A stretch of 64,000 nucleotides of DNA from Escherichia coli (lineage in GTDB: Bacteria > Pseudomonadota > Gammaproteobacteria > Enterobacterales > Enterobacteriaceae), in assembly GCA_025336685.1 (NCBI GenBank), contig GCA_025336685.1_4717.1, one strand, 5' to 3'. Positions within the stretch are counted from its first letter, which is position 1. Each line of letters starts with the position of its first letter. Under the pieces are notes generated by a model. That model ran no database searches and had not been told where the DNA came from. It saw only the letters and a list, made by a program, of their open reading frames with translations. Of the stretch, positions 1,526-28,782 are shown one piece after another. The position numbers and the translations under genes were made by a program.

Positions 1526-2770
1526 ATGCTCATGTCTTCTATTTTACAGGTGTTTAATGCGCATGCGGAAGGCATTGACATCGACGAGTATTTTGTTAAT
1601 CAGGTTATCCGTTACGCGACACGCTTCCGCACGCAAGACCAAGAACACATGCGTTTTTTCGGTGGGGTTCTGTTAGGTGTGCAGAAAATCCGATTCACAA
1701 CAAGACATAACGATATGTGGTTTTCCGACGTCTTGATGATGGATGAAGAAAGCTTACGACGCGATTTGAGTAAACTGCCCTTTTACAATACGCAGACCAA
1801 CCGTGTTGCCTCAAACGCATTTAACCTAAGTTGCTGTTGGTTGCTTTATGCGATTTTCCATAGCAAACAAATCAAAAAAGAAAAGGTTCGTGAGGCCGGG
1901 ATGCTTGCTGCAATGCAAGTCCTTCATTATAAATTCATTTGCGGTCTGGTAGCACGACGTTATCCTTATAACGCTGATCCGGCTATCGCTATTAAGGCGT
2001 ACGATGAGTTAACGCTCAAATCAGGTATCAAACGCATGAATAGCTGGAATGAGTACATTGACGAACGCTGTAATGCCATCATTGCGCGTAATAGCACACA
2101 TTTCAGTCGCTGGTCAACCCTGGAACCAGATAGTGTCGCCGAACGTTTTGTACGTGATGTGAATACCGGAATCCGTAAAGTTATCAACCGTATCACCGAT
2201 ACGTACTACGCGATGTACGAAGAAGGTAAGAAGATAGGCACGTCCTCTCAAACCGTAGAATTAGACGATGGTCTTGCTGTTCGCGATATTAAACGCAATG
2301 AAACCACTTACCGTCAATATCTGTTCGAAATCGCTTATGACCGGACAAGTTTCGTTAAACGCGAACTCATGGTCGTCATCCTCGACGTGCATCATACTAC
2401 CAATCTCCTATCCCTTGAGCGAGCGTTAAGCTATATCAGCGCTAACGTAGAGCGGCCAACAAAAGACGGAAAGCAGGTCTCTCAGATGTTGAGGCTTGTA
2501 ATGGAACATGCTATCGAGTATATCATCTTGAATAAGGTTGATATGCGCGATCTTACGTTCTTATTCTACATGCGTAACGTGTATACGTCTAACCGCACTA
2601 GCAACCCGAAACTGTTAGAGCTGCGTAAACTCGGCTCTGAAGTCATTAAGAAAGCAACCAACGCGAGAAACGACGCTGAAGCTGCAGCGACACGCACAGG
2701 TGTCTTTCTGTATATCCTGCTTCGGGTGTTTAGCCGCAACTATTACGTTCGTCGCGCGATGTCTCGCTAA
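1526..2770 (+). CDS. hypothetical protein (414 aa)
   Basis: Long ORF on plus strand flanked by minus-strand genes; followed by hairpin at 2923..2951. Confidence 0.55.
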   Translation: MLMSSILQVFNAHAEGIDIDEYFVNQVIRYATRFRTQDQEHMRFFGGVLLGVQKIRFTTRHNDMWFSDVLMMDEESLRRDLSKLPFYNTQTNRVASNAFNLSCCWLLYAIFHSKQIKKEKVREAGMLAAMQVLHYKFICGLVARRYPYNADPAIAIKAYDELTLKSGIKRMNSWNEYIDERCNAIIARNSTHFSRWSTLEPDSVAERFVRDVNTGIRKVINRITDTYYAMYEEGKKIGTSSQTVELDDGLAVRDIKRNETTYRQYLFEIAYDRTSFVKRELMVVILDVHHTTNLLSLERALSYISANVERPTKDGKQVSQMLRLVMEHAIEYIILNKVDMRDLTFLFYMRNVYTSNRTSNPKLLELRKLGSEVIKKATNARNDAEAAATRTGVFLYILLRVFSRNYYVRRAMSR

Positions 2771-2922
2771 CAATGTAACAGTAAAACTTTACTGATGTTG
2801 GTTATTATTTGAAGCATAGGGCTTCACCCAGGAGTACCATCCCTGTAAGTCGTTTGTCCTCTCCTGGTTAACTGTCGTTCTCTCACAGTGCTCGACAGAC
2901 CAAAAATGCTCAAGCCTCATAG

Positions 2923-2951
2923 CCTCCTCTGGGAATGGAACCCAGAGGAGG
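2923..2951. terminator. GC-rich hairpin (CCTCCTCTGGG / CCCAGAGGAGG, 11-bp stem, 7-nt loop)
   Basis: Perfect inverted repeat read directly; lies between convergent genes 1526..2770 (+) and 2964..3284 (-). No strong U-run, so terminator function is tentative. Confidence 0.4.
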
Positions 2952-2963
2952 ACTATGTTTGCT

Positions 2964-3284
2964 TTAAAATTCAATGCGACCCTTAGTTGTAAACAATACA
3001 CCTCTTTGCCAACAGAAAAGATCCTCCGATTGAGCGCAAACACGAATACCCGCATCGAATAGATGTTTTGTTCTGGCGCTTAAACAATCTGGATCTTCTA
3101 CATACAACAGAAGACGTTGGCATTTATTTTGAATGCGTTCGACAAGGATGTTCTTATCGCTTAAAATAAAATGCGCGTTATCTGTTAAGTTGTCGTCGGT
3201 TTCCAGCTGCCCGACAAGTTTGATTAAAATACGTAATTGCTCAAGTGTGTCATGATCAAATGAATCGCCCATGGCGTACCTCAA
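2964..3284 (-). CDS. small hypothetical protein (about 100 aa; start may be the second Met)
   Basis: ORF track; immediately downstream of the terminase gene on the same strand and followed by the 2923..2951 hairpin. Confidence 0.35.
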   Translation of the reverse strand: MRYAMGDSFDHDTLEQLRILIKLVGQLETDDNLTDNAHFILSDKNILVERIQNKCQRLLLYVEDPDCLSARTKHLFDAGIRVCAQSEDLFCWQRGVLFTTKGRIEF

Positions 3285-21005: not shown

Positions 21006-21040
21006 GAGCAGGGGCATGAAGCCCCCTGCTCTTATTTAGC
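21006..21040 (-). terminator. hairpin terminator (GAGCAGGGGC ... GCCCCCTGCTC) with T-rich tail on minus strand
   Basis: Read directly; immediately downstream of the minus-strand gene 21032..22255. Confidence 0.5.
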
Positions 21041-22255
21041 GTCGTTAAAGTAAATATCAACAGCTCGTTCCGTTGCGTAGAGGAGACCAAGATTCACAGT
21101 CCCAACCACTTCCGGTGAACCGATGATACGGTTAGCGATACTGGTGCCACTGAAGATAGCATCAAGGGTGTGCCCGTCTTCGGTTTTGTTCACACCATGA
21201 CCCACGGAAGAGACAACGGATTTCGCTTGTGCTGCGAAGGTACCCTTATCACCCATCCCCGCACCAAGGTCGTAACGCATGAAAATACGGATGGCGATCT
21301 GGTTCTCGCCTAACGGATTACCGTCTATTCTCACGTTACTGTTGTTGATACGCCCCGTCGTTGCTTCATTGAGTTTCAGTTCCTTGACGCGTTTAGCTCG
21401 CGCTTTATCTGCGTCACCGACGAGCGCCGCCATGGTTTCACTCATATCCTCAATCTGAGCGCGGTACAGCACATCGATCTGTACAACTTCACCATGAACG
21501 TCAGCACGTGGGTTATACTGACTCATACGACGTAATGCTTCAACGGCTTCCTGACTCTCATCACTCAGATCAGTTGCGATCGGTTCTTCCAGTGTTGCAA
21601 GAATAGTTCGAGGTTCAACATGATCGCCGATTTTTACGAGACCACGAATGTTGAGATGGGCGTCAACAATGAGCGTGCGGCTCTTAATCGATGGTGTTAC
21701 GAGACGATCGGCAAGATTGTCGAAGATATACGAACTGTCCTCGTGAGTCTCTGGAATATCCAGAATACCGACAAGAGACAGAACACCTGCGCGCCAAACA
21801 ACCTGACCTGGGTTCCACCAGTCGCGTTTAAAATAAAGACGATGGAAAACTACCACATCTTGATCCTTAACGCGATCCCCAACTTTATAATCGGTAATGA
21901 GGTCATGCGGATAATACTTACCTGGTCCTTTCCCGATTATCGTACCGAGTTGGAAAACCTCTTCTCCTAACTCTGGATCATCGTATTGTATCGTAAGCGC
22001 AGTTTTGGTGACCTTCTTCACAACACCATCGCCTTGGGCGGCAGCTGCGAAGAGTTTACCAACGCGATGCGCGATAACGGTCTCGCCACCAGTACGCCAT
22101 GGTTGTACATCGTAACCTTCAGCAGCAATCATGCGGTTGTGTTGGATGCCTATAAATACGAGACGCTTTGGCGGAATCCAGCAAAATACATTTACTGTGC
22201 GTCCGGATTGTTCAGATAAGGTCGTTAATCTTATCCCGGAGGCGATGATAGGCAC
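21032..22255 (-). CDS. putative RNA polymerase beta-like subunit fragment (middle segment)
   Basis: 407 aa; GDKGTFAAQAKSVV resembles beta GDKxAGRHGNKGV and a following G-T-x-x-D-x-I segment resembles beta PVDIVLNPLGVPSRMNIGQ (weak, by eye); GTG start preceded by GGGAGG SD. Confidence 0.3.
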   Translation of the reverse strand: MPIIASGIRLTTLSEQSGRTVNVFCWIPPKRLVFIGIQHNRMIAAEGYDVQPWRTGGETVIAHRVGKLFAAAAQGDGVVKKVTKTALTIQYDDPELGEEVFQLGTIIGKGPGKYYPHDLITDYKVGDRVKDQDVVVFHRLYFKRDWWNPGQVVWRAGVLSLVGILDIPETHEDSSYIFDNLADRLVTPSIKSRTLIVDAHLNIRGLVKIGDHVEPRTILATLEEPIATDLSDESQEAVEALRRMSQYNPRADVHGEVVQIDVLYRAQIEDMSETMAALVGDADKARAKRVKELKLNEATTGRINNSNVRIDGNPLGENQIAIRIFMRYDLGAGMGDKGTFAAQAKSVVSSVGHGVNKTEDGHTLDAIFSGTSIANRIIGSPEVVGTVNLGLLYATERAVDIYFNDAK

Positions 22256-22483
22256 ACCGCCTCCCGCTTACGCTCTCACGTAAGAGCAGACTATATCACA
22301 TCTCGTCTTAGGCTTGTTTTCACAAGTCAAACGGTGCTTCTTCAGCACCTCAACGAGAGTTCACTTCTTCCCAGCGCATCCAGCGCCATTCTCTTATCCA
22401 AGGAGAATGCCTCACTCGAGGGGTACAGGGGGATGAATCCCTTAGTCGTTGAACCGTCACCCTAGAACGTTTCACAACGATCC
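22256..22483 (-). ncRNA. structured non-coding region between HNH gene and beta-like fragment (possible group I intron 3' portion)
   Basis: 228 nt with stops in all frames of interest; on the minus-strand transcript at least four short hairpins (GGUGCU-GAAGAA-GCACC, CUUGU-GAAAA-ACAAG, CUUACG-UGAGAG-CGUAAG, CAUUCUC-N-GAGAAUG); catalytic-core elements not identified. Confidence 0.2.
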
Positions 22484-23695
22484 TTAGGCGATTGGCTGCG
22501 GATTACCCTTGGCCTGCGGACCACGAACTTTTGTCGCGGTCAACTCTTCATTTTTAAAGCCTGCTTTACGAGCAATACGTCTCGCTTCTCGCACGTCTAA
22601 CGTTTCCGTTTCCGCTTTGGCTGAAGGCAGCATTGGGCGTCCTCGCAATTCAATGAATCTCGTCCATACGTCACCGTATAAACGGACCCGCTCTTTGTAA
22701 ACAGAATAGTAAATATAACGTTTTCCGTCAGGGAATTTAGTCATCCCATCGGACTTCAAACGGTAATTGAGTAACGTAGTAGATATACCCATTTCTTCGG
22801 CGCAATCAACGGCTGAAAGGTACAATAGCGGTACATCATTTTCAGGAATGACGACAATAGCACGTTTGTTGGTTGTCTTCTCCAACTCCAGGATACTATC
22901 TTCGACTTCCCGCCACGGCGTCTCATCAGTAACCCATTTAACTTGATAACAGCCATTAACGACAGGTTGGTTCTTGTCGTTAACGTACATCGACGCAGTG
23001 GGTAACTTAACACCAATGTGATTAGCGAATTCAGTCAATGATTCGAAAAGATGAATCTCTTTTGTTATCGTTGACCTTGCAATCACGCCCTTACTCCCCG
23101 TATCCGTCAACGTTGCTAACTCGTATTTGGTAGGAATACGCCACGGTTCATCGCCGTAATCTTTGCGGTACTGCTTACGTTCAGGAAACGCTCGCTGTTT
23201 ACCTCTATAGACACGATGATGAATGAAGTCGATATTCACACCAAGATCGCGTGCCGCTTCCGTCATGGATGGATATCTAGTTACAACACCGGTGTCAACA
23301 TCACGAACCTGAATAGGTTTACCGTAAGCAGCAATAGAACGTTTACGCATGTTCATAATGCGGGCATGCTGATTGTTCTCTTTCTGTGTAACCCATTCAA
23401 GATTGTCATTCTCTGTGTTACCGTCGGGATCAAGGTAGTTATTAAGTCTGTTGCCGTCCTTGTGGTTCACATGGAGCAAATGCGCATCATCGATGTTACG
23501 GAACGTTAACATTAGAAGTCTATGCATGGAACGGTAAACCAATGTTCCATCGTGACCTCGAAACGAATAACGATAATACCCAGCAATGATGATGGGCAAA
23601 TATTCAAACTTCGATTCCTTGTTACGCAATGTTCCATCTATGGATATCTCCAGGAACGGGAATTCCGGTACGGTCTTAAATACCTTCTCACTCAT
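22484..23695 (-). CDS. HNH homing endonuclease with NUMOD/IENR-like DNA-binding repeats
   Basis: 403 aa; HNH motif HHVNHKDGNRLNNYLDPDGNTENDNLEWVTQKENNQHA; three helix-turn-helix-like repeats (YPSMTEAARDLGVN, FESLTEFANHIGVK, YLSAVDCAEEMGIS); AGAGGA SD; own promoter-like motif upstream. Confidence 0.85.
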   Translation of the reverse strand: MSEKVFKTVPEFPFLEISIDGTLRNKESKFEYLPIIIAGYYRYSFRGHDGTLVYRSMHRLLMLTFRNIDDAHLLHVNHKDGNRLNNYLDPDGNTENDNLEWVTQKENNQHARIMNMRKRSIAAYGKPIQVRDVDTGVVTRYPSMTEAARDLGVNIDFIHHRVYRGKQRAFPERKQYRKDYGDEPWRIPTKYELATLTDTGSKGVIARSTITKEIHLFESLTEFANHIGVKLPTASMYVNDKNQPVVNGCYQVKWVTDETPWREVEDSILELEKTTNKRAIVVIPENDVPLLYLSAVDCAEEMGISTTLLNYRLKSDGMTKFPDGKRYIYYSVYKERVRLYGDVWTRFIELRGRPMLPSAKAETETLDVREARRIARKAGFKNEELTATKVRGPQAKGNPQPIA

Positions 23696-23735
23696 TGACT
23701 ATATTCCTCTTGTGCAGTGATATTAACTACACTTT

Positions 23736-23744
23736 CGTAATATA
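23736..23744 (-). promoter_or_regulatory. promoter-like motif GGNCTATATTACC (copy 2)
   Basis: Exact CTATATTAC on minus strand about 40 nt upstream of the HNH ATG, in the 75-nt gap after the 1069 aa ORF. Confidence 0.35.
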
Positions 23745-23770
23745 GCCTTAATTCTGTTTACATTGAAGCC

Positions 23771-26700
23771 TTAATCATCTCTATCAGCAGCAGGTACTGC
23801 AAGTGCTGATGTACTCATTATTGACGAGCTACCATCCGTTTTCTCGTCGTAGGGTTTCGTTTCACCGTATACAGACACAATGTTTGCGTTAGGTGCGAGG
23901 TAAGCAGAAATACCTACATCCCCACTATCCTTCGTACCTTCGGATACAACACCAATGTCCGACTTGTCGTATTCACGATCGCGTGCGCGTCGAAGCGATG
24001 TCTTTGAACGCCCCCCGATACCGGTCATCGTTGCTTCTTCACCCTGCTTGATATCCAGCATCGGGTTGGTTTCATCGATCACGATGGAAGCGCTGTCGTC
24101 GAGAATTTGGTTCCAGACACTCACTGGACTGATTGAGATTTTCTGGCGGTTTCCTTGACTGCTGTTCTCGTTTTGACGAATAGCGCTAACCAGGTCCTTA
24201 TACACCAGTTCGGCGAACTTATCGTACGTTTTAAAACGTTGGTAGTTCACATCGTTCGTGTTAGGTGCCCAGTCATCCAGAAGCAGTTCAACAGCACGCA
24301 GTAACAACATGGCGAAATCGGTAGGTTCTCCCATGTTCTGTAGCAACGTACGGCTCACCGGATCGATGAAAAGACGCTCCATGAGTTCAAGTTCGCGTAA
24401 ATGGCGAACCTTAAGTCCAGCACCATCGACAACGTTAAAATAGATATCTCGATTGTCAAAAGCACCGCGAGCGTAACCGATGTAGTTACGGTACTCGTTG
24501 AACCCACCCAACAGCAACGTCGTCATGCGATCGTCTTTACTGAAGATCAAACTTTCGTCGTCAAAGCTCACCGCGAATTCATCGGGTGCTAGACCCATAC
24601 GAGAGCCGCGAGGTACCGTACGATAGTTCGCTTTAAGGTGTTCTAATAACGGGGTAAGCCCACCCAGATAACTTAGAACAACACCGACCGGAATACGTAC
24701 ACCCATGAATTCAAGATCGGCGGCTTCGATCGGCATCTTAGCCGCATTGATACCGAAGAAATCAGGGAACGTCCCTACAGGTGTTGGTGTTTGTCCTGAC
24801 TGACAGATATAGAGCTGATTGCGTTCATCGATTGCTAAGAATTCACCCAACGTGTTACGTGCAAACGTCAGGAGCCCTTCGGCTAACTGTTCGTTGAACC
24901 GATCTTCCCCAATGAACTCCGGCAATGTCTTTATATCGAGACGTATATCCCAATCAGCGAATTGGATTTGGGTATAGTTGCGTGCAAGCACTGCGAAGTA
25001 ATACGGGACTTTGACAGCCGGATCAAAGACGTTACCGCGTTTTAACGTGGTTAAGGGTGAGGACTTATCGTAATACATCGCCGTAAGTTGACGTGTTAGC
25101 CAACGACCCGCATTATTAACGACGCGCTCTGAACGTTTAACAAACACCTTACCGTAGGCGGTACTCAATGCAACTTCGGATGACGATACCTTTCTAATAG
25201 GTTTATCGACGCGTTGTTTACGCATCCGGTACTTGATGCCGTTAACGACATAAATGCCGTCCTTACGAACCTTCGGTAACATCACCGGGAACGTGGTCGG
25301 GACACCGCCTACGGGGGCCAGTTTAATCGTGATGACTTGATAATCCCCCATCACGTCAACAACATCTTCGACTTTATATCCCGTGACTGGGTAACCTGCC
25401 TGCTGTACCGCAACAACAGCAGCTGCGATGTCCTTTTGCATTACGTGTTCGACGTAATGTTTATCCCACACCGCAAGCGTCGATTTACATAAGCTCTTAT
25501 CGACGATAACGTCCGCTTCCGGCATAACCTTTGCGGGAGCTAATTTCGCGGCTTTTGGTTTAACTTCAACATACTCAGCAAGTGTTAATCCAGAACCGTC
25601 GGGTGCTTCGATTTCATGGATGGCGTCAGCGTTACGCATCGCTGCTTTATATTGGACGCCACTTAACTGCCCCGCATCCGCCAGATCGCCCGCGCGTACC
25701 AACACCGCATCCGATAACGACTGAATATACTCACCGTGTGTTTTTGGTAACGTTGTCGCGTCAAAGACATCAACCTTTTCTTCTTCGGTATCGTCAGTAA
25801 CGACTTCGAAGAGATCGTCGGTAATGTCCTGATCTTCATCAGGTTGGAAATCCGGTTGTACTTCTACCCCGGGTACTTCACGGACATCTTCGAACGTGCG
25901 TTCTACAACGGCGTTCCATGCATCAGCGTCATCGTCTTCATCCGACCCACCGACCAACTCCGCTTCTAACTCATCGGGGTCAAGAACAGTGGCCAGATCC
26001 TCACCGTTAGGAAGCACGACGTCACGATCGTCGTACTCCGCATCCGGGTTGTCGGTAAGAATATCTCGCTCTTGACGAAGAACCTGTTCCTCTTCTTGTT
26101 TCTGTTCTTCTTCATTCGCGCTCTGCGACCACAAACGTGTTACCGCCATCATCCAACGACGTTGGAAGGTTTCAAGTGTCGTTTTGTCGAGTTCTTCCCC
26201 TTCCTTTACAAGCCCGGTACGCCATTCCTCCAGCAGGCCGAGATTCAACGTAAAGAAGTACACACCGTCTGTAAATACAACGTTAAGCTTATCCAGCGTG
26301 GCCCTGTCTAACGAAGCCATCGTGCTGTTCTCACGATCGGTTCCCAACCAGCGGAAGAAGTCAAAGAACGACAGCTCCTCCGGTGTGGCGAAATTCATGA
26401 GGTTGTTACGGGTCGGTGCCTGTTGTGTGGTACGCATCAACGAAATCTTCGGCAATGTTGACGGTAAACGGAACAACAAAAAGTGTTGACGATCGCTTTG
26501 TTGTGCGATTTCGTTGGCTTTCGACCAAATTGTTTTACGTACGTTGAACCATTCATCATACCAACGGGTGAGCGTTGGACGATAGATGTACATGTGGTTA
26601 AGATGCGCGTAGTTAGCAACGATCTGAGCGTTGATGTTTTTCTCCACCGTACTTAGATCGGTAACCAAACGAAAACGACGATGCGATGCACGATAATCCA

Positions 26701-26980
26701 ATTTCGCTCGTGGAAGTTGGAATCGTTGATCGCGTCGAGGTGCGCCTTGTTTGGTTGCGAGATCATCAGCAAACGAAATCCATAGTTGAGCATTTTCTTT
26801 ACTCAGCATGTATTCGTTTTCTGGAGGACCTATCAATGAAGGATCCGTTGCGGTGTAATGATAGACAGCATAACGCGGCAGCTGCAATAGCTGCACTAAA
26901 CGTAATCTTGGTGATAGTAGCTCTTGGTAGCGTCTGACACCGAACTGTCGGTAGTAATCAAGGTATTTAAGTTTTGCCAT
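23771..26980 (-). CDS. putative RNA polymerase beta-like subunit, N-terminal fragment
   Basis: 1069 aa; by-eye matches to bacterial beta: [17 protein letters not shown] vs [33 protein letters not shown] vs [34 protein letters not shown] vs YGFLETPYRKVTDG near the C-terminus. Confidence 0.45.
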   Translation of the reverse strand: [1069 protein letters not shown]

Positions 26981-26983
26981 GGG

Positions 26984-28630
26984 TTAGGCTCCACGAGGTC
27001 CCGTTAAGTTGCGTAATAGGAACGCAACCGTATCGTAACCAATATCAATGTTGAATTTATTTTTACCACTTACCCAGAAAGCTCGCTTCTTGTGCGAGTT
27101 GGTAATTTCGTCAATGGCTTCCATGGAATAAAGAACGTTAACCGAGACCGTATCACCATCAAAGTCCCCGCCAAGTCCGGCGAGGTATGGGGCAGGGACA
27201 ATAGTCGTTTCTACGAACGAAGCATTAGGTAACCAGTCAGGGTATTCCCATGCGATAAATCGTTCATCCGTTATTGGTTCCCAGTTACTATCCAGTTCGG
27301 TTTTCGGTTTTGCGGCGACGGTTGTACGCGCATAACAGGTTAACGGGATAACGGATTGCATACCCGATACCGGATAACGTGTTACCATTGCAGCCAGGTT
27401 ATTCCAGTACTTATATCCGGCGATGTACACTAATTCGGTATACGTGATGGGGTGAACATCCGCACCAGGTTTATTCAACATTTCTGGGGGTAATTCACTC
27501 ATACCACGGAACAGTCGAAACGAATCATTGTTCACATAGACGAGGCAAAGATAACGTCCATTAACCATGATAGGTTCGTTACGCACGCCTGGATCGCTTA
27601 AGGTGTTCAATAAACGTTCTATTCCGTCCCATGTCGTAAAGTCATCGATGGTGTCTGGATCAAGCGTGACGCGTTCACGTTCCATCGTTTCGGTATCGAT
27701 AAGTTCAACTTCTGTAACATCACGGACAAATATTTCCTGCAAAATCCCCGTACGTAACGCATGTTGCGTCACGGGTAGGGCGGCTTTGCTCATCTGGTAT
27801 AACCCTAACTGAACTGCAGTACAGGAAGGCTGGTTGGGCGATCCTAGTACCTCCGTTGTGGGGTTAATTGCCGAAATAACGTTACGGGTTGAGTTCCAAA
27901 CACGACGTGAGCCGAACTTCCCTTGAAAGATCCCTTTCTTACCTTGGAACATATCCAACAACAAAGCGTAGATATCGTTAAATGTTCTCTGTAAGCTCCA
28001 GCGTTGGCCGTCGTAAACGGGATCGGAATAATCTTTTAATCCATCGGGGACGGTGTTAGAAATTGCAAGGAAACGACGATACAACTCCGTGATTTCTTGC
28101 TCGCTTTCATACCCGCCTTCTTTTACTTCTATTTCACGTAAGCCCGCAGGTAAAACCAGTAAGTGACGGGTCATCGCTTTGAACATGTTCTCTTCGACAA
28201 CTTTAATTCGTAGCTCTCGTTGAGCTGAACCCGTTGAAACGAACTTGATATCCGCGACGTGTTGTGCAAAGAACCCGTACCCTGTCTGTCCTGTTAACGC
28301 ATCAGACGCAACGAAATCGCGTTGTTCAGGATCCCACCGAGCGTACGCCTTCCCCGACATGATATCACCATAGAGGTGTTTTAATCGAATGAGGCGGTCG
28401 TAAATGACAGGATGCAGGATTTCAACTTTGCATTCAATCACCGCAAATCGACGGTCTCGATCTTCACTACCTGCACTACCAAAGATGGTGTAAGAATAGA
28501 AACCATCATCGTGGAAATTACCGGTGCTTGGGTCACGAATGCTCATGCTCGTGATCTTGGGGAGAAAACGTAACTGTTGTTTATCGAGGTGTAAAATACT
28601 AATATTAAACGGCTCTCTGACTTTAGCCAT
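26984..28630 (-). CDS. RNA polymerase beta'-like subunit, N-terminal fragment
   Basis: Catalytic motif GDFDGDTVSVNV (beta' NADFDGDQMAVHV) near C-terminus; QGKFGSRRVWNSTRNVISAINP resembles beta' GKRVDYSGRSVIVVGP; ORF track starts at 28672 but ATG at 28630 has an AGAGGAG SD. Confidence 0.65.
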   Translation of the reverse strand: MAKVREPFNISILHLDKQQLRFLPKITSMSIRDPSTGNFHDDGFYSYTIFGSAGSEDRDRRFAVIECKVEILHPVIYDRLIRLKHLYGDIMSGKAYARWDPEQRDFVASDALTGQTGYGFFAQHVADIKFVSTGSAQRELRIKVVEENMFKAMTRHLLVLPAGLREIEVKEGGYESEQEITELYRRFLAISNTVPDGLKDYSDPVYDGQRWSLQRTFNDIYALLLDMFQGKKGIFQGKFGSRRVWNSTRNVISAINPTTEVLGSPNQPSCTAVQLGLYQMSKAALPVTQHALRTGILQEIFVRDVTEVELIDTETMERERVTLDPDTIDDFTTWDGIERLLNTLSDPGVRNEPIMVNGRYLCLVYVNNDSFRLFRGMSELPPEMLNKPGADVHPITYTELVYIAGYKYWNNLAAMVTRYPVSGMQSVIPLTCYARTTVAAKPKTELDSNWEPITDERFIAWEYPDWLPNASFVETTIVPAPYLAGLGGDFDGDTVSVNVLYSMEAIDEITNSHKKRAFWVSGKNKFNIDIGYDTVAFLLRNLTGPRGA

Positions 28631-28782
28631 GGAGACACTCCTCTTTACCACCACCGGCTGCGGCGGTATCATCTGAACACACGAGAGACGTAATGGGTGA
28701 TGGCGTCACCCATCGCTTCCTTGCTTGAGGCGAGGAAGTTATTAGGTTACGTACCTGCCTGATTTTATCAGGTGGGCGATGT

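Follow-up and report, generated by a model that had tools for sequence, protein, structure and literature searches.

A probable mobile group I intron in the virion RNA polymerase beta-subunit gene of a Goslar-like Escherichia coli jumbo phage

What occupies the 228 nucleotides (nt) that separate an HNH endonuclease gene from what looks like the C-terminal fragment of an RNA polymerase beta subunit? The segment lies in a 64,000-nt stretch (the window) of contig GCA_025336685.1_4717.1, from the Escherichia coli assembly GCA_025336685.1, at positions 22256-22483, between the stop of a 403-amino acid (aa) open reading frame (ORF; 23695..22484) and the GTG of a 407-aa ORF (22255..21032), all on the minus strand. 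A sequence-only reading had noted that the minus-strand RNA folds here into at least four short hairpins with GNRA-like loops, that it carries a tandem CGCUGG repeat and no long ORF, and that it could be either a ribozyme core or a structured 5' leader. We are confident that the structured segment belongs to a mobile, IA2-type group I intron, of whose catalytic core it forms the 3' half, and that this intron is inserted in the virion RNA polymerase (vRNAP) beta gene of a Goslar-like jumbo phage. The assignment of 22256-22483 to the P6b to P9.1 portion of a group I catalytic core is supported because three kinds of evidence converge on it, namely a match to the Rfam model RF00028, an intron-less homolog of the interrupted gene in Escherichia phage Goslar, and 15 covarying base pairs. 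The same three bear out the ribozyme half of the sequence-only reading.

The interrupted polymerase gene and the intron boundaries

The ORFs flanking the interval have 94-96% identity to a single gene, Goslar gp207, annotated "RNA polymerase beta subunit", and gp207 is continuous in Goslar at 207224-211570. Exon 1 of the window gene (23774..26980, minus strand, ~95% identity to gp207) ends ...AADRDD with U23774 as its last base, and exon 2 (21032..22171, minus strand, ~96% identity) starts at 22171 with CCA AAG, which opens PKRLVFIGIQH... Joining U23774 to C22171 produces a coding sequence (CDS) of 4347 nt with a single terminal stop and exactly the length of Goslar gp207, and for that reason the intron is taken to be 23773..22172, a complete group I intron of 1602 nt on the minus strand, with the 5' splice site after U23774 and the 3' splice site after G22172. 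Apart from this intron the Goslar and window genes are colinear, RF00028 matches it, and the site is shared with the gp210 intron of Pseudomonas phage PhiPA3. The Goslar protein reads ...SALAVPAVDRDDGKRLVFVGIQH... across the insertion site, and the window reads ...SALAVPAADRDD, then a stop, then ~1.6 kb, then PKRLVFIGIQH, the stop being an in-frame UAA (23773-23771) made of the initial three bases of the intron. Splicing would join ...GAUAGAGAUGAU to CCAAAGCGUCUC (GAUGAU|CCAAAG), where the uninterrupted site in Goslar gp207 is GACCGTGACGAT|GGAAAACGT, and the protein junction would be DRDD|PKRLVF versus DRDDGKRLVF in Goslar. Judged by these comparisons, the intron-bearing phage is a nucleus-forming chimallivirus of the Goslar type and the interrupted gene is that of its vRNAP beta subunit.

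Colinearity with Goslar is what allows the boundaries to be fixed to the base. No G other than G22172, in UCCG|CCAAAG, yields a junction that is in frame and of Goslar length; G22203 and G22204 were tried as 3' splice sites and rejected, their junctions being out of frame or reaching a stop. Five alleles of the intron were compared, the window and four from public assemblies with Goslar-like backgrounds (L003, L208, L216 and L217; the samples are SRR34060196, ERZ27336971, IMG 3300011560 and IMG 3300045988), and the intron end ...U(C/U)CG|CC is common to all five, including L216, in which an unrelated insert precedes it.

These boundaries bear directly on the second half of the sequence-only reading, that of a structured 5' leader ahead of the Shine-Dalgarno (SD) sequence of the beta-like fragment. 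Spelled out as a rival, it would have the leader and SD serve a separate beta C-terminal fragment that starts at GTG 22255. The gene would then be split without splicing and the HNH gene free-standing. There is a GGGAGG 5-10 nt upstream of the GTG that opens the 407-aa ORF, the polymerase subunits of chimalliviruses are often encoded in pieces by separate genes, and in PhiPA3 and Serratia phage 2050HW GenBank has one CDS for each half. However, the start codon is not conserved, the GTG at 22255 being GCG in the sister allele L003 and GCA in L208. GGGAGGCGGUG is the 5' strand of P9.1, a covarying 10-bp helix, and it is this strand that had been taken for an SD plus GTG (22265-22253). The first 28 codons of the 407-aa ORF (22255-22172) have no Goslar counterpart and belong to the intron, as P9.1, P9.2 and P9.3, while the continuous Goslar gene is matched to the base by the two exons together; and the group I model matches the very segment that would be the leader. 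We regard a leader with a split gene as extremely improbable, and the start and SD proposed for the beta-like fragment are not supported. The interval itself is real but was drawn too narrowly, since the ribozyme proper starts with the internal guide sequence at 22689 and ends with the terminal G at 22172. It does follow the stop of the HNH ORF, as had been said, but that ORF is itself part of the intron, with a 3' end that overlaps the ribozyme.

Pfam (E <= 0.01) has no match for the neighboring 562-aa ORF (26984-28672) or for the 1069-aa ORF (23771-26980), although the latter is exon 1 of the gene annotated as RNA polymerase beta subunit; the polymerase subunits of these jumbo phages have diverged beyond the reach of Pfam. 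Directly past the exon 2 stop there is a 9-bp GC-rich hairpin with a T-run (21006-21031), matching a terminator annotated after Goslar gp207.

Model match, covariation and the helices of the core

RF00028 (group I intron) matches 22709..22267 on the minus strand with 49.4 bits (E = 5.4e-11) over all 253 model positions, and it is the sole match in a scan of the whole 64 kb (E = 1.6e-09). At the Rfam gathering threshold nothing is found in the window, and a permissive search was required. The sister alleles L003 and L208, the second of which has no endonuclease ORF, score 51.4 and 54.0 bits, both over the curated gathering score of 50 bits, and introns in relatives range from 40.2 to 82.6 bits (PhiPA3 67.8, 2050HW 82.6, Vibrio phage C-ZP2022 40.2, Klebsiella phage phiKp_32 51.9). 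A blastn "distant" search with 22256-22720 against 50,697 phage records gave no match.

The alignment of the five alleles has 98.6% of its cells paired, with 15 pairs altered on both sides (0 of 500 shuffles), and when the partners are slid by 1-3 columns as a control only 0-1 doubly changed pairs are obtained. With three alleles, 99% of cells pair and 7 pairs are altered on both sides (0/500 shuffles). Compensatory changes occur in P2, P3, P4, P5, P6a, P6b, P8, P8a, P9, P9.1 and P9.3; in P9, for example, the pair 22281/22270 is A-U in the window, G.U in L003, and G-C in L208, L216 and L217. For the invariant helices, P6, P7, P7.1-P7.4 and P9.2, the support is conservation. Each helix is also formed with a different sequence in PhiPA3, 2050HW, C-ZP2022, phiKp_32 and the td intron, where the helices were placed by hand and then checked. 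A MAFFT alignment of the 3' halves with these same five was unreliable in the variable hairpins and was replaced by the helix-by-helix check and the alignments of close alleles. Membership of the group I family is shown, on the sequences, by the model match and the covariation. The sequence-only reading had itself proposed a covariance-model search for introns and an alignment for compensatory changes, and had named the lack of an intron-model match and of stem conservation as what would speak against it; neither applies.

In total, 18 helices were placed on the window sequence, including the P3/P7 pseudoknot, and the P4-P6 and P3-P7-P8 core domains are both present with that pseudoknot topology. 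On the 5' side of the interval (all on the minus strand) there are the P2 hairpin with a GUGA tetraloop (22663..22682), 2 pairs of which have compensatory changes among the alleles, and, within 22453..22657, the P3 5' strand (22657-22652), P4 (22647-22642 / 22502-22497), P5 with its extension (22637-22506), and P6, P6a and P6b (22496-22453). These are positioned by the Rfam alignment, with covariation in P3, P4, P5, P6a and P6b. The interval then holds P6b, the 3' strands of P6a and P6, J6/7, the P7 5' strand (22447-22443), P7.1-P7.4 (22441-22374), the P3 3' strand (22365-22360), P8 with P8a and P8b (22358-22301), J8/7, the P7 3' strand (22293-22289), P9 (22284-22267), and the P9.1 5' strand (22264-22255) minus its last base. 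Within 22172..22255 follow that base (22255), the loop and the 3' strand (22247-22238) of P9.1, then P9.2 (22235-22215), a lineage-specific terminal hairpin P9.3 (22208-22176), the tail UCC and the terminal G22172, with covariation in P9.1 and P9.3.

What the sequence-only reading had seen in the interval can now be given a name. Its hairpins are present, with GNRA loops in P6b (CGUU-GUGA-AACG) and in P8b and a loop containing GAGA in P9 (CUUACG-UGAGAG-CGUAAG). P8 has two branches, GGUGC-UGAAGAA-GCACC and CUUGU-GAAA-ACAAG, the second being the one with the GNRA loop. Four hairpins, not two, stand between P7 and P3', and these are P7.1 (GGGA-UUCA-UCCC), P7.2 (CCUC-GAGU-GAGG), P7.3 (CAUUCUC...GAGAAUG) and P7.4 (GCGC-UGGAU-GCGC). 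The tandem repeat is real in the form GCGCUGG, at 22386-22380 and 22377-22371, and the GCGC cores of its two copies pair with each other as P7.4. No ORF in the interval exceeds 43 aa. The sequence AAGUGAAC (22366-22359) was considered as the counterpart of the P7.2 loop of 2050HW and td and was rejected, its flanks being unable to pair; it is the P3 3' strand. In related introns the spacing from P9.2 to the terminal G is ~6-11 nt, and in the window, L003, L208 and L217 the 33-nt P9.3 hairpin occupies that place. As to peripheral elements, P8b is an indel polymorphism, a 19-nt hairpin (22309-22327) in the window, a shorter and different one in L217, and none in L003, L208 or L216. One P8 branch of phiKp_32, GAGC-UGAAGAA-GCUC, is a compensated version of GUGC-UGAAGAA-GCAC in the window.

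Guide sequence, endonuclease frame and possible decay

The internal guide sequence GGGUC (22685..22689, minus strand) is part of GGGUCC at 22689-22684, ~1.08 kb downstream of the 5' splice site. In the predicted P1 duplex its GGUC, G22688 to C22685, pairs with GAU|U across the splice site (23773..23776, minus strand), with a U23774.G22687 wobble. The guide is brought back to the splice site by GCUU/GAGC and by a 12-bp long-range helix, whose 5' strand UGUAAACAGAAU (23751..23762, minus strand) is the perfect complement of the 3' strand AUUCUGUUUACA (22707-22696). No complement of 12 bp arose in 2000 shuffles, and an A-to-U change at 23763 in L003 lengthens the helix by one pair. Because the guide sequence 3' of the ORF pairs back to the splice site and the loop is closed by the 12-bp helix, the HNH gene is shown, at the level of sequence and predicted pairing, to sit in the P1 loop. 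The ORF-less L208 has the same arrangement in its plain form. It starts GAUGAU|UAACGCUUUUAAUAGCAGGGUCC, with GGGUC 17 nt past the 5' splice site, and forms a simple P1 hairpin of GGUC with GAU|U that again has the U.G wobble at the splice site. C-ZP2022 has a clean 7-bp P1 at the equivalent position, and a (G/A)GUC motif is found there in PhiPA3, 2050HW and C-ZP2022. For PhiPA3 and 2050HW an unconstrained duplex prediction gives registers competing with P2, and the P1 register in those two is not settled.

A real intron with another guide would be obtained if UAGUCA (23703-23698), just before the HNH start, paired with the splice site, which would put the ORF between P1 and P2. Six pairs are possible between UAGUCA and UGAU|UA, one of them a U.G at the splice site. 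But it is absent from the ORF-less allele, which keeps GGGUC; it is not conserved in PhiPA3, 2050HW or C-ZP2022, where the (G/A)GUC beside P2/P3 is; and it reads UAGCCA in L216 and L217 with the loss of one pair. Guide candidates between the 5' splice site and the ORF (UAGUCA/UAGUUA) were rejected once the ORF-less allele was known, and we judge this arrangement very unlikely relative to GGGUC as the guide with the ORF in the P1 loop.

The intron-encoded ORF (22484..23695, minus strand) would specify a 403-aa HNH homing endonuclease with its body in the P1 loop and codons ~330-403 running through the guide and P2-P6a. Pfam finds NUMOD1 at 34.3 bits, over the cut-off of 22.8, and, below their cut-offs, the I-TevI DNA-binding domain at 25.8 (27) and HNH_3 at 16.8 (24.8). 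Among the 50,697 phage records the best match by both E-value and bit score is PhiPA3 gp210, with 36% identity and E = 5e-47. In the comparison with gp210 (E = 3e-57) the motif HVNHK...DNLEWV...NNQH aligns with that of gp210, H78 here corresponding to the catalytic H82 in gp210.

The frame remains open for 60 codons beyond the end of the gp210 homology, where gp210 and its relatives, of 325-350 aa, stop near the guide or P2. About 74 codons (~220 nt) overlap the ribozyme, passing through the 3' strand of the loop-closing helix, the guide, P2, P3, P4, the P5 extension, P4' and P6, to a UAA stop at 22486-22484 in P6a. Compared with L216 and L217, the body of the ORF (aa 1-329) has a synonymous divergence (pS) of 0.74-0.82 and a nonsynonymous to synonymous ratio (pN/pS) of 0.20-0.24, and the tail has a pS of 0.07-0.17, a strong reduction of synonymous change, and a pN/pS of 0.66-0.78. 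In shuffles a frame stays open for 60 codons in 7% of cases and for 73 codons in 2%. Since the open frame is not rare by chance, synonymous change is reduced and pN/pS is this high, the tail is, by these substitution patterns, constrained as RNA, and the body is the selected protein; the notion that the C-terminal 60-74 codons are a selected protein domain was rejected on the shuffle frequencies and pN/pS. The overlap of ORF and ribozyme may be tolerated, or it may be used as a switch between splicing and translation. In Goslar-like nucleus-forming phages, transcription and splicing take place inside the phage nucleus and translation outside.

Several observations weigh against a functional group I intron with this P1. 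P1 has just 4 pairs, 3 of them exonic, and is invariant among the alleles, hence has no support from covariation, and no convincing P10 was found in the window intron. At 22643/22501 in P4 there is an A.C mismatch, against G-C or U-A in the other alleles. Among the central hairpins P7.1-P7.4 no variation is seen, so that conservation is all that backs them. In related IA2 introns the terminal G stands where G22203 does here, and splicing at G22203 would give an out-of-frame product. The window score for RF00028 is 0.6 bit under the gathering score, which is also a practical warning, as a scan at the Rfam gathering threshold misses this intron by that amount. By folding energy the 228 nt are unremarkable (z = -1.16; of 200 shuffles, 23 fold at least as well); this measure, which does not set the interval apart from shuffles, was dropped as evidence, and for that reason structure prediction alone proves nothing here, the significance coming from homology and covariation. 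Lastly, it is from the family that we infer self-splicing, nicking and homing, and a role in phage competition.

Some of these points are what would be expected of a decayed intron that no longer self-splices, either leaving a pseudogenized polymerase gene or needing a protein cofactor. The sub-threshold window score, the A.C mismatch in P4 and the ORF reading through the core fit with decay, as do the lineage-specific insertions, namely a P5 extension ~56 nt longer than in the ORF-less allele L208, the 19 nt of P8b, and P9.3. Yet the gene for an essential virion polymerase subunit is intact and in frame in 5 of 5 alleles, the compensatory changes indicate ongoing selection for the helices, and P7 with its adjoining sequence is identical to that of the active td ribozyme. 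Moreover, between the window and L003 there are zero substitutions in 22642-22328 although ~4% of positions differ overall. Decay is thus given little credence by us, at about the level of the alternative guide, and an intact intron remains by far the preferred interpretation.

Relatives, alleles and mobility

The closest known system is the PhiPA3 vRNAP beta intron, between gp211 and gp209, with its endonuclease gp210. The host gene is the same, with exon 2 39% identical to gp209 and both of 379 aa, and the insertion point is shared, directly after two conserved aspartates of the gp178-like beta subunit (DRDD| here). The HNH endonuclease is homologous (36% identity, catalytic His kept), and the ribozyme lies 3' of the ORF as in the window, with the same helix set in compensated sequences. 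Endonuclease, host gene and insertion site are thereby shown, by sequence comparison, to be homologous to those of the PhiPA3 system. The window intron differs from it in that the phage is Goslar-like with E. coli as host, that its ORF is 73 aa longer and reads on through P2-P6a, and that two extra hairpins, P7.3 and P7.4, stand between P7.2 and P3', the P5 extension carries an insertion, P8 is branched, P9.1 has 10 bp, and a hairpin of 33 nt precedes the 3' splice site. The layout beta-N / HNH / 300-400 nt / beta-C is found in PhiPA3 and also in 2050HW, C-ZP2022 and phiKp_32. In phiKp_32 (L205, ~1290-1300 and 2700-2715) the insertion is apparently a few codons later, after DDPKR... and not directly after DD.

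The td intron (T4-type, IA2, encoding I-TevI) is the relative for subgroup assignment. P7 and the 15-mer next to it, GAUAUAGUCUGCUCU, are identical in td and the window, and so is a 32-nt module of P9.2 plus tail (window 22240-22209). Both have a GUGA loop on P2, the P7.1/P7.2 and P9.1/P9.2 architecture, and a stop codon right at the intron start; the likening of P7.1/P7.2 to those of td is by position only. Unlike the window intron, td lies in another host gene, has a GIY-YIG ORF in the P6 loop where the window has HNH in the P1 loop, and has 6-7 exonic pairs in P1 versus 3. By these features the subgroup is IA2, td-like. The 29-32-nt module GGGAUAAGAUUAACGACCUUAUCUGAACA (22209-22240) has a 29-mer core that also ends several otherwise different IA2 introns in IMG/VR (loci L209-L215). 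The idea that the 32-nt identity records a recent exchange with T-even phages was set aside because the 29-mer, shared by several unrelated IA2 introns, marks the IA2 subgroup and not td specifically. The P9.2 stem varies freely in the PhiPA3-type relatives, unlike the exact module kept in the other IA2 introns.

L003 (IMG/VR 3300011560_000001) is ~96% identical to the window intron. L208 (IMGVR_UViG_3300045988_173921, 2540-3000) has a 461-nt intron at the same codon without the endonuclease gene. L216 (471-1682) and L217 (3001-4212) have endonucleases of 403 aa each, with 80% and 72% protein identity to that of the window. In nucleotides, these two compared with the window (ORF body 22708-23695) have 67-73% identity in the ORF body, 88-96% in the ribozyme and 95-98% in the exons. 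Because the ORF body is far more diverged than exons and ribozyme, the sequences suggest that the endonuclease cassette has a history different from that of its intron, through either cassette replacement or a much faster evolution of the endonuclease. The end of the intron is variable as well, L216 having a 52-nt terminal insert of unrelated sequence (~1945-1997) that replaces the 33-nt P9.3 and still ends AAUUCG|CCCAAG. The locus is therefore represented by five states in near-identical phage backgrounds, intron-less (Goslar), an ORF-less intron, and three diverged ORF-bearing alleles, and these could be a snapshot of a cycle of invasion, replacement and loss of a homing endonuclease.

A second sign of mobility is found in the flanks. 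Over the 100 nt of exon 1 that border the insertion, window and Goslar have 70% identity, and over the 100 nt of exon 2 on the other side 89%, in a background that is mostly 92-100%, with two more exon-1 bins at 85%. The changes in the 60 nt on either side of the junction barely alter the protein. An identity dip flanking the insertion is the pattern expected of co-conversion with a diverged donor, as far as sequence can indicate it. Goslar itself (NC_048170) has another HNH homolog, of 27% identity, at 212514-213239, ~1 kb past the far end of gp207.

The endonuclease of the PhiPA3 intron, gp210, was the subject of Birkholz et al. (Science 2024, PMC11620839), and the PhiPA3 intron of the gp210 type has been shown experimentally to be a weapon between co-infecting phages. 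The introns in the DNA polymerase genes of SPO1 and SP82, as cited in that paper, are "similar introns with highly divergent ORFs" and carry nicking HNH endonucleases of the I-HmuI type (Goodrich-Blair & Shub 1994; Landthaler 2004). By the literature they are like the window intron in having an HNH plus NUMOD-type endonuclease in a group I intron of a phage polymerase gene and an ORF that diverges more than the intron, and unlike it in gene, host and intron lineage. Self-splicing introns of chimallivirus polymerase genes are already included in reviews; in the literature on these introns and on Goslar together with introns, no description of this E. coli phage intron was found. On sequence comparison, then, the window intron is a gp210-type mobile group I intron of chimallivirus vRNAP beta, a type already known from PhiPA3.

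A mechanism can be proposed on this basis. The pre-mRNA would fold into P1-P9, with the guide GGUC paired to GAU|U at the 5' splice site through the U23774.G22687 wobble, and an exogenous guanosine bound in P7 would attack the 5' splice site. The terminal G22172 would next take the G-site, and exon ligation would give ...DRDD-PKRLVF..., restoring a polymerase subunit of 1448 aa. If it acts as its homolog PhiPA3 gp210 does, the endonuclease would nick the insertion site in alleles that lack the intron, that of Goslar among them, and the nicking would drive homing or interfere with a co-infecting phage. That the intron is an active element of interference competition and homing, in circulation among the Goslar-like nucleus-forming phages of E. 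coli, is offered tentatively, and we consider it possible but doubtful.

For the annotation of these phages, the gene model is corrected to one polymerase subunit in place of two fragments and a "leader". Goslar-related E. coli phages have a gp210-type intron at the codon where PhiPA3 has it, and Goslar, a genetically tractable model without the intron, is so a likely natural target. The interest of the locus rests on its natural allele series and on an unusually long overlap between endonuclease frame and ribozyme. The series provides material on how homing endonuclease genes invade a ribozyme loop, on the constraint that a ribozyme puts on an overlapping reading frame, and on whether intron-mediated competition generalizes beyond Pseudomonas phages.

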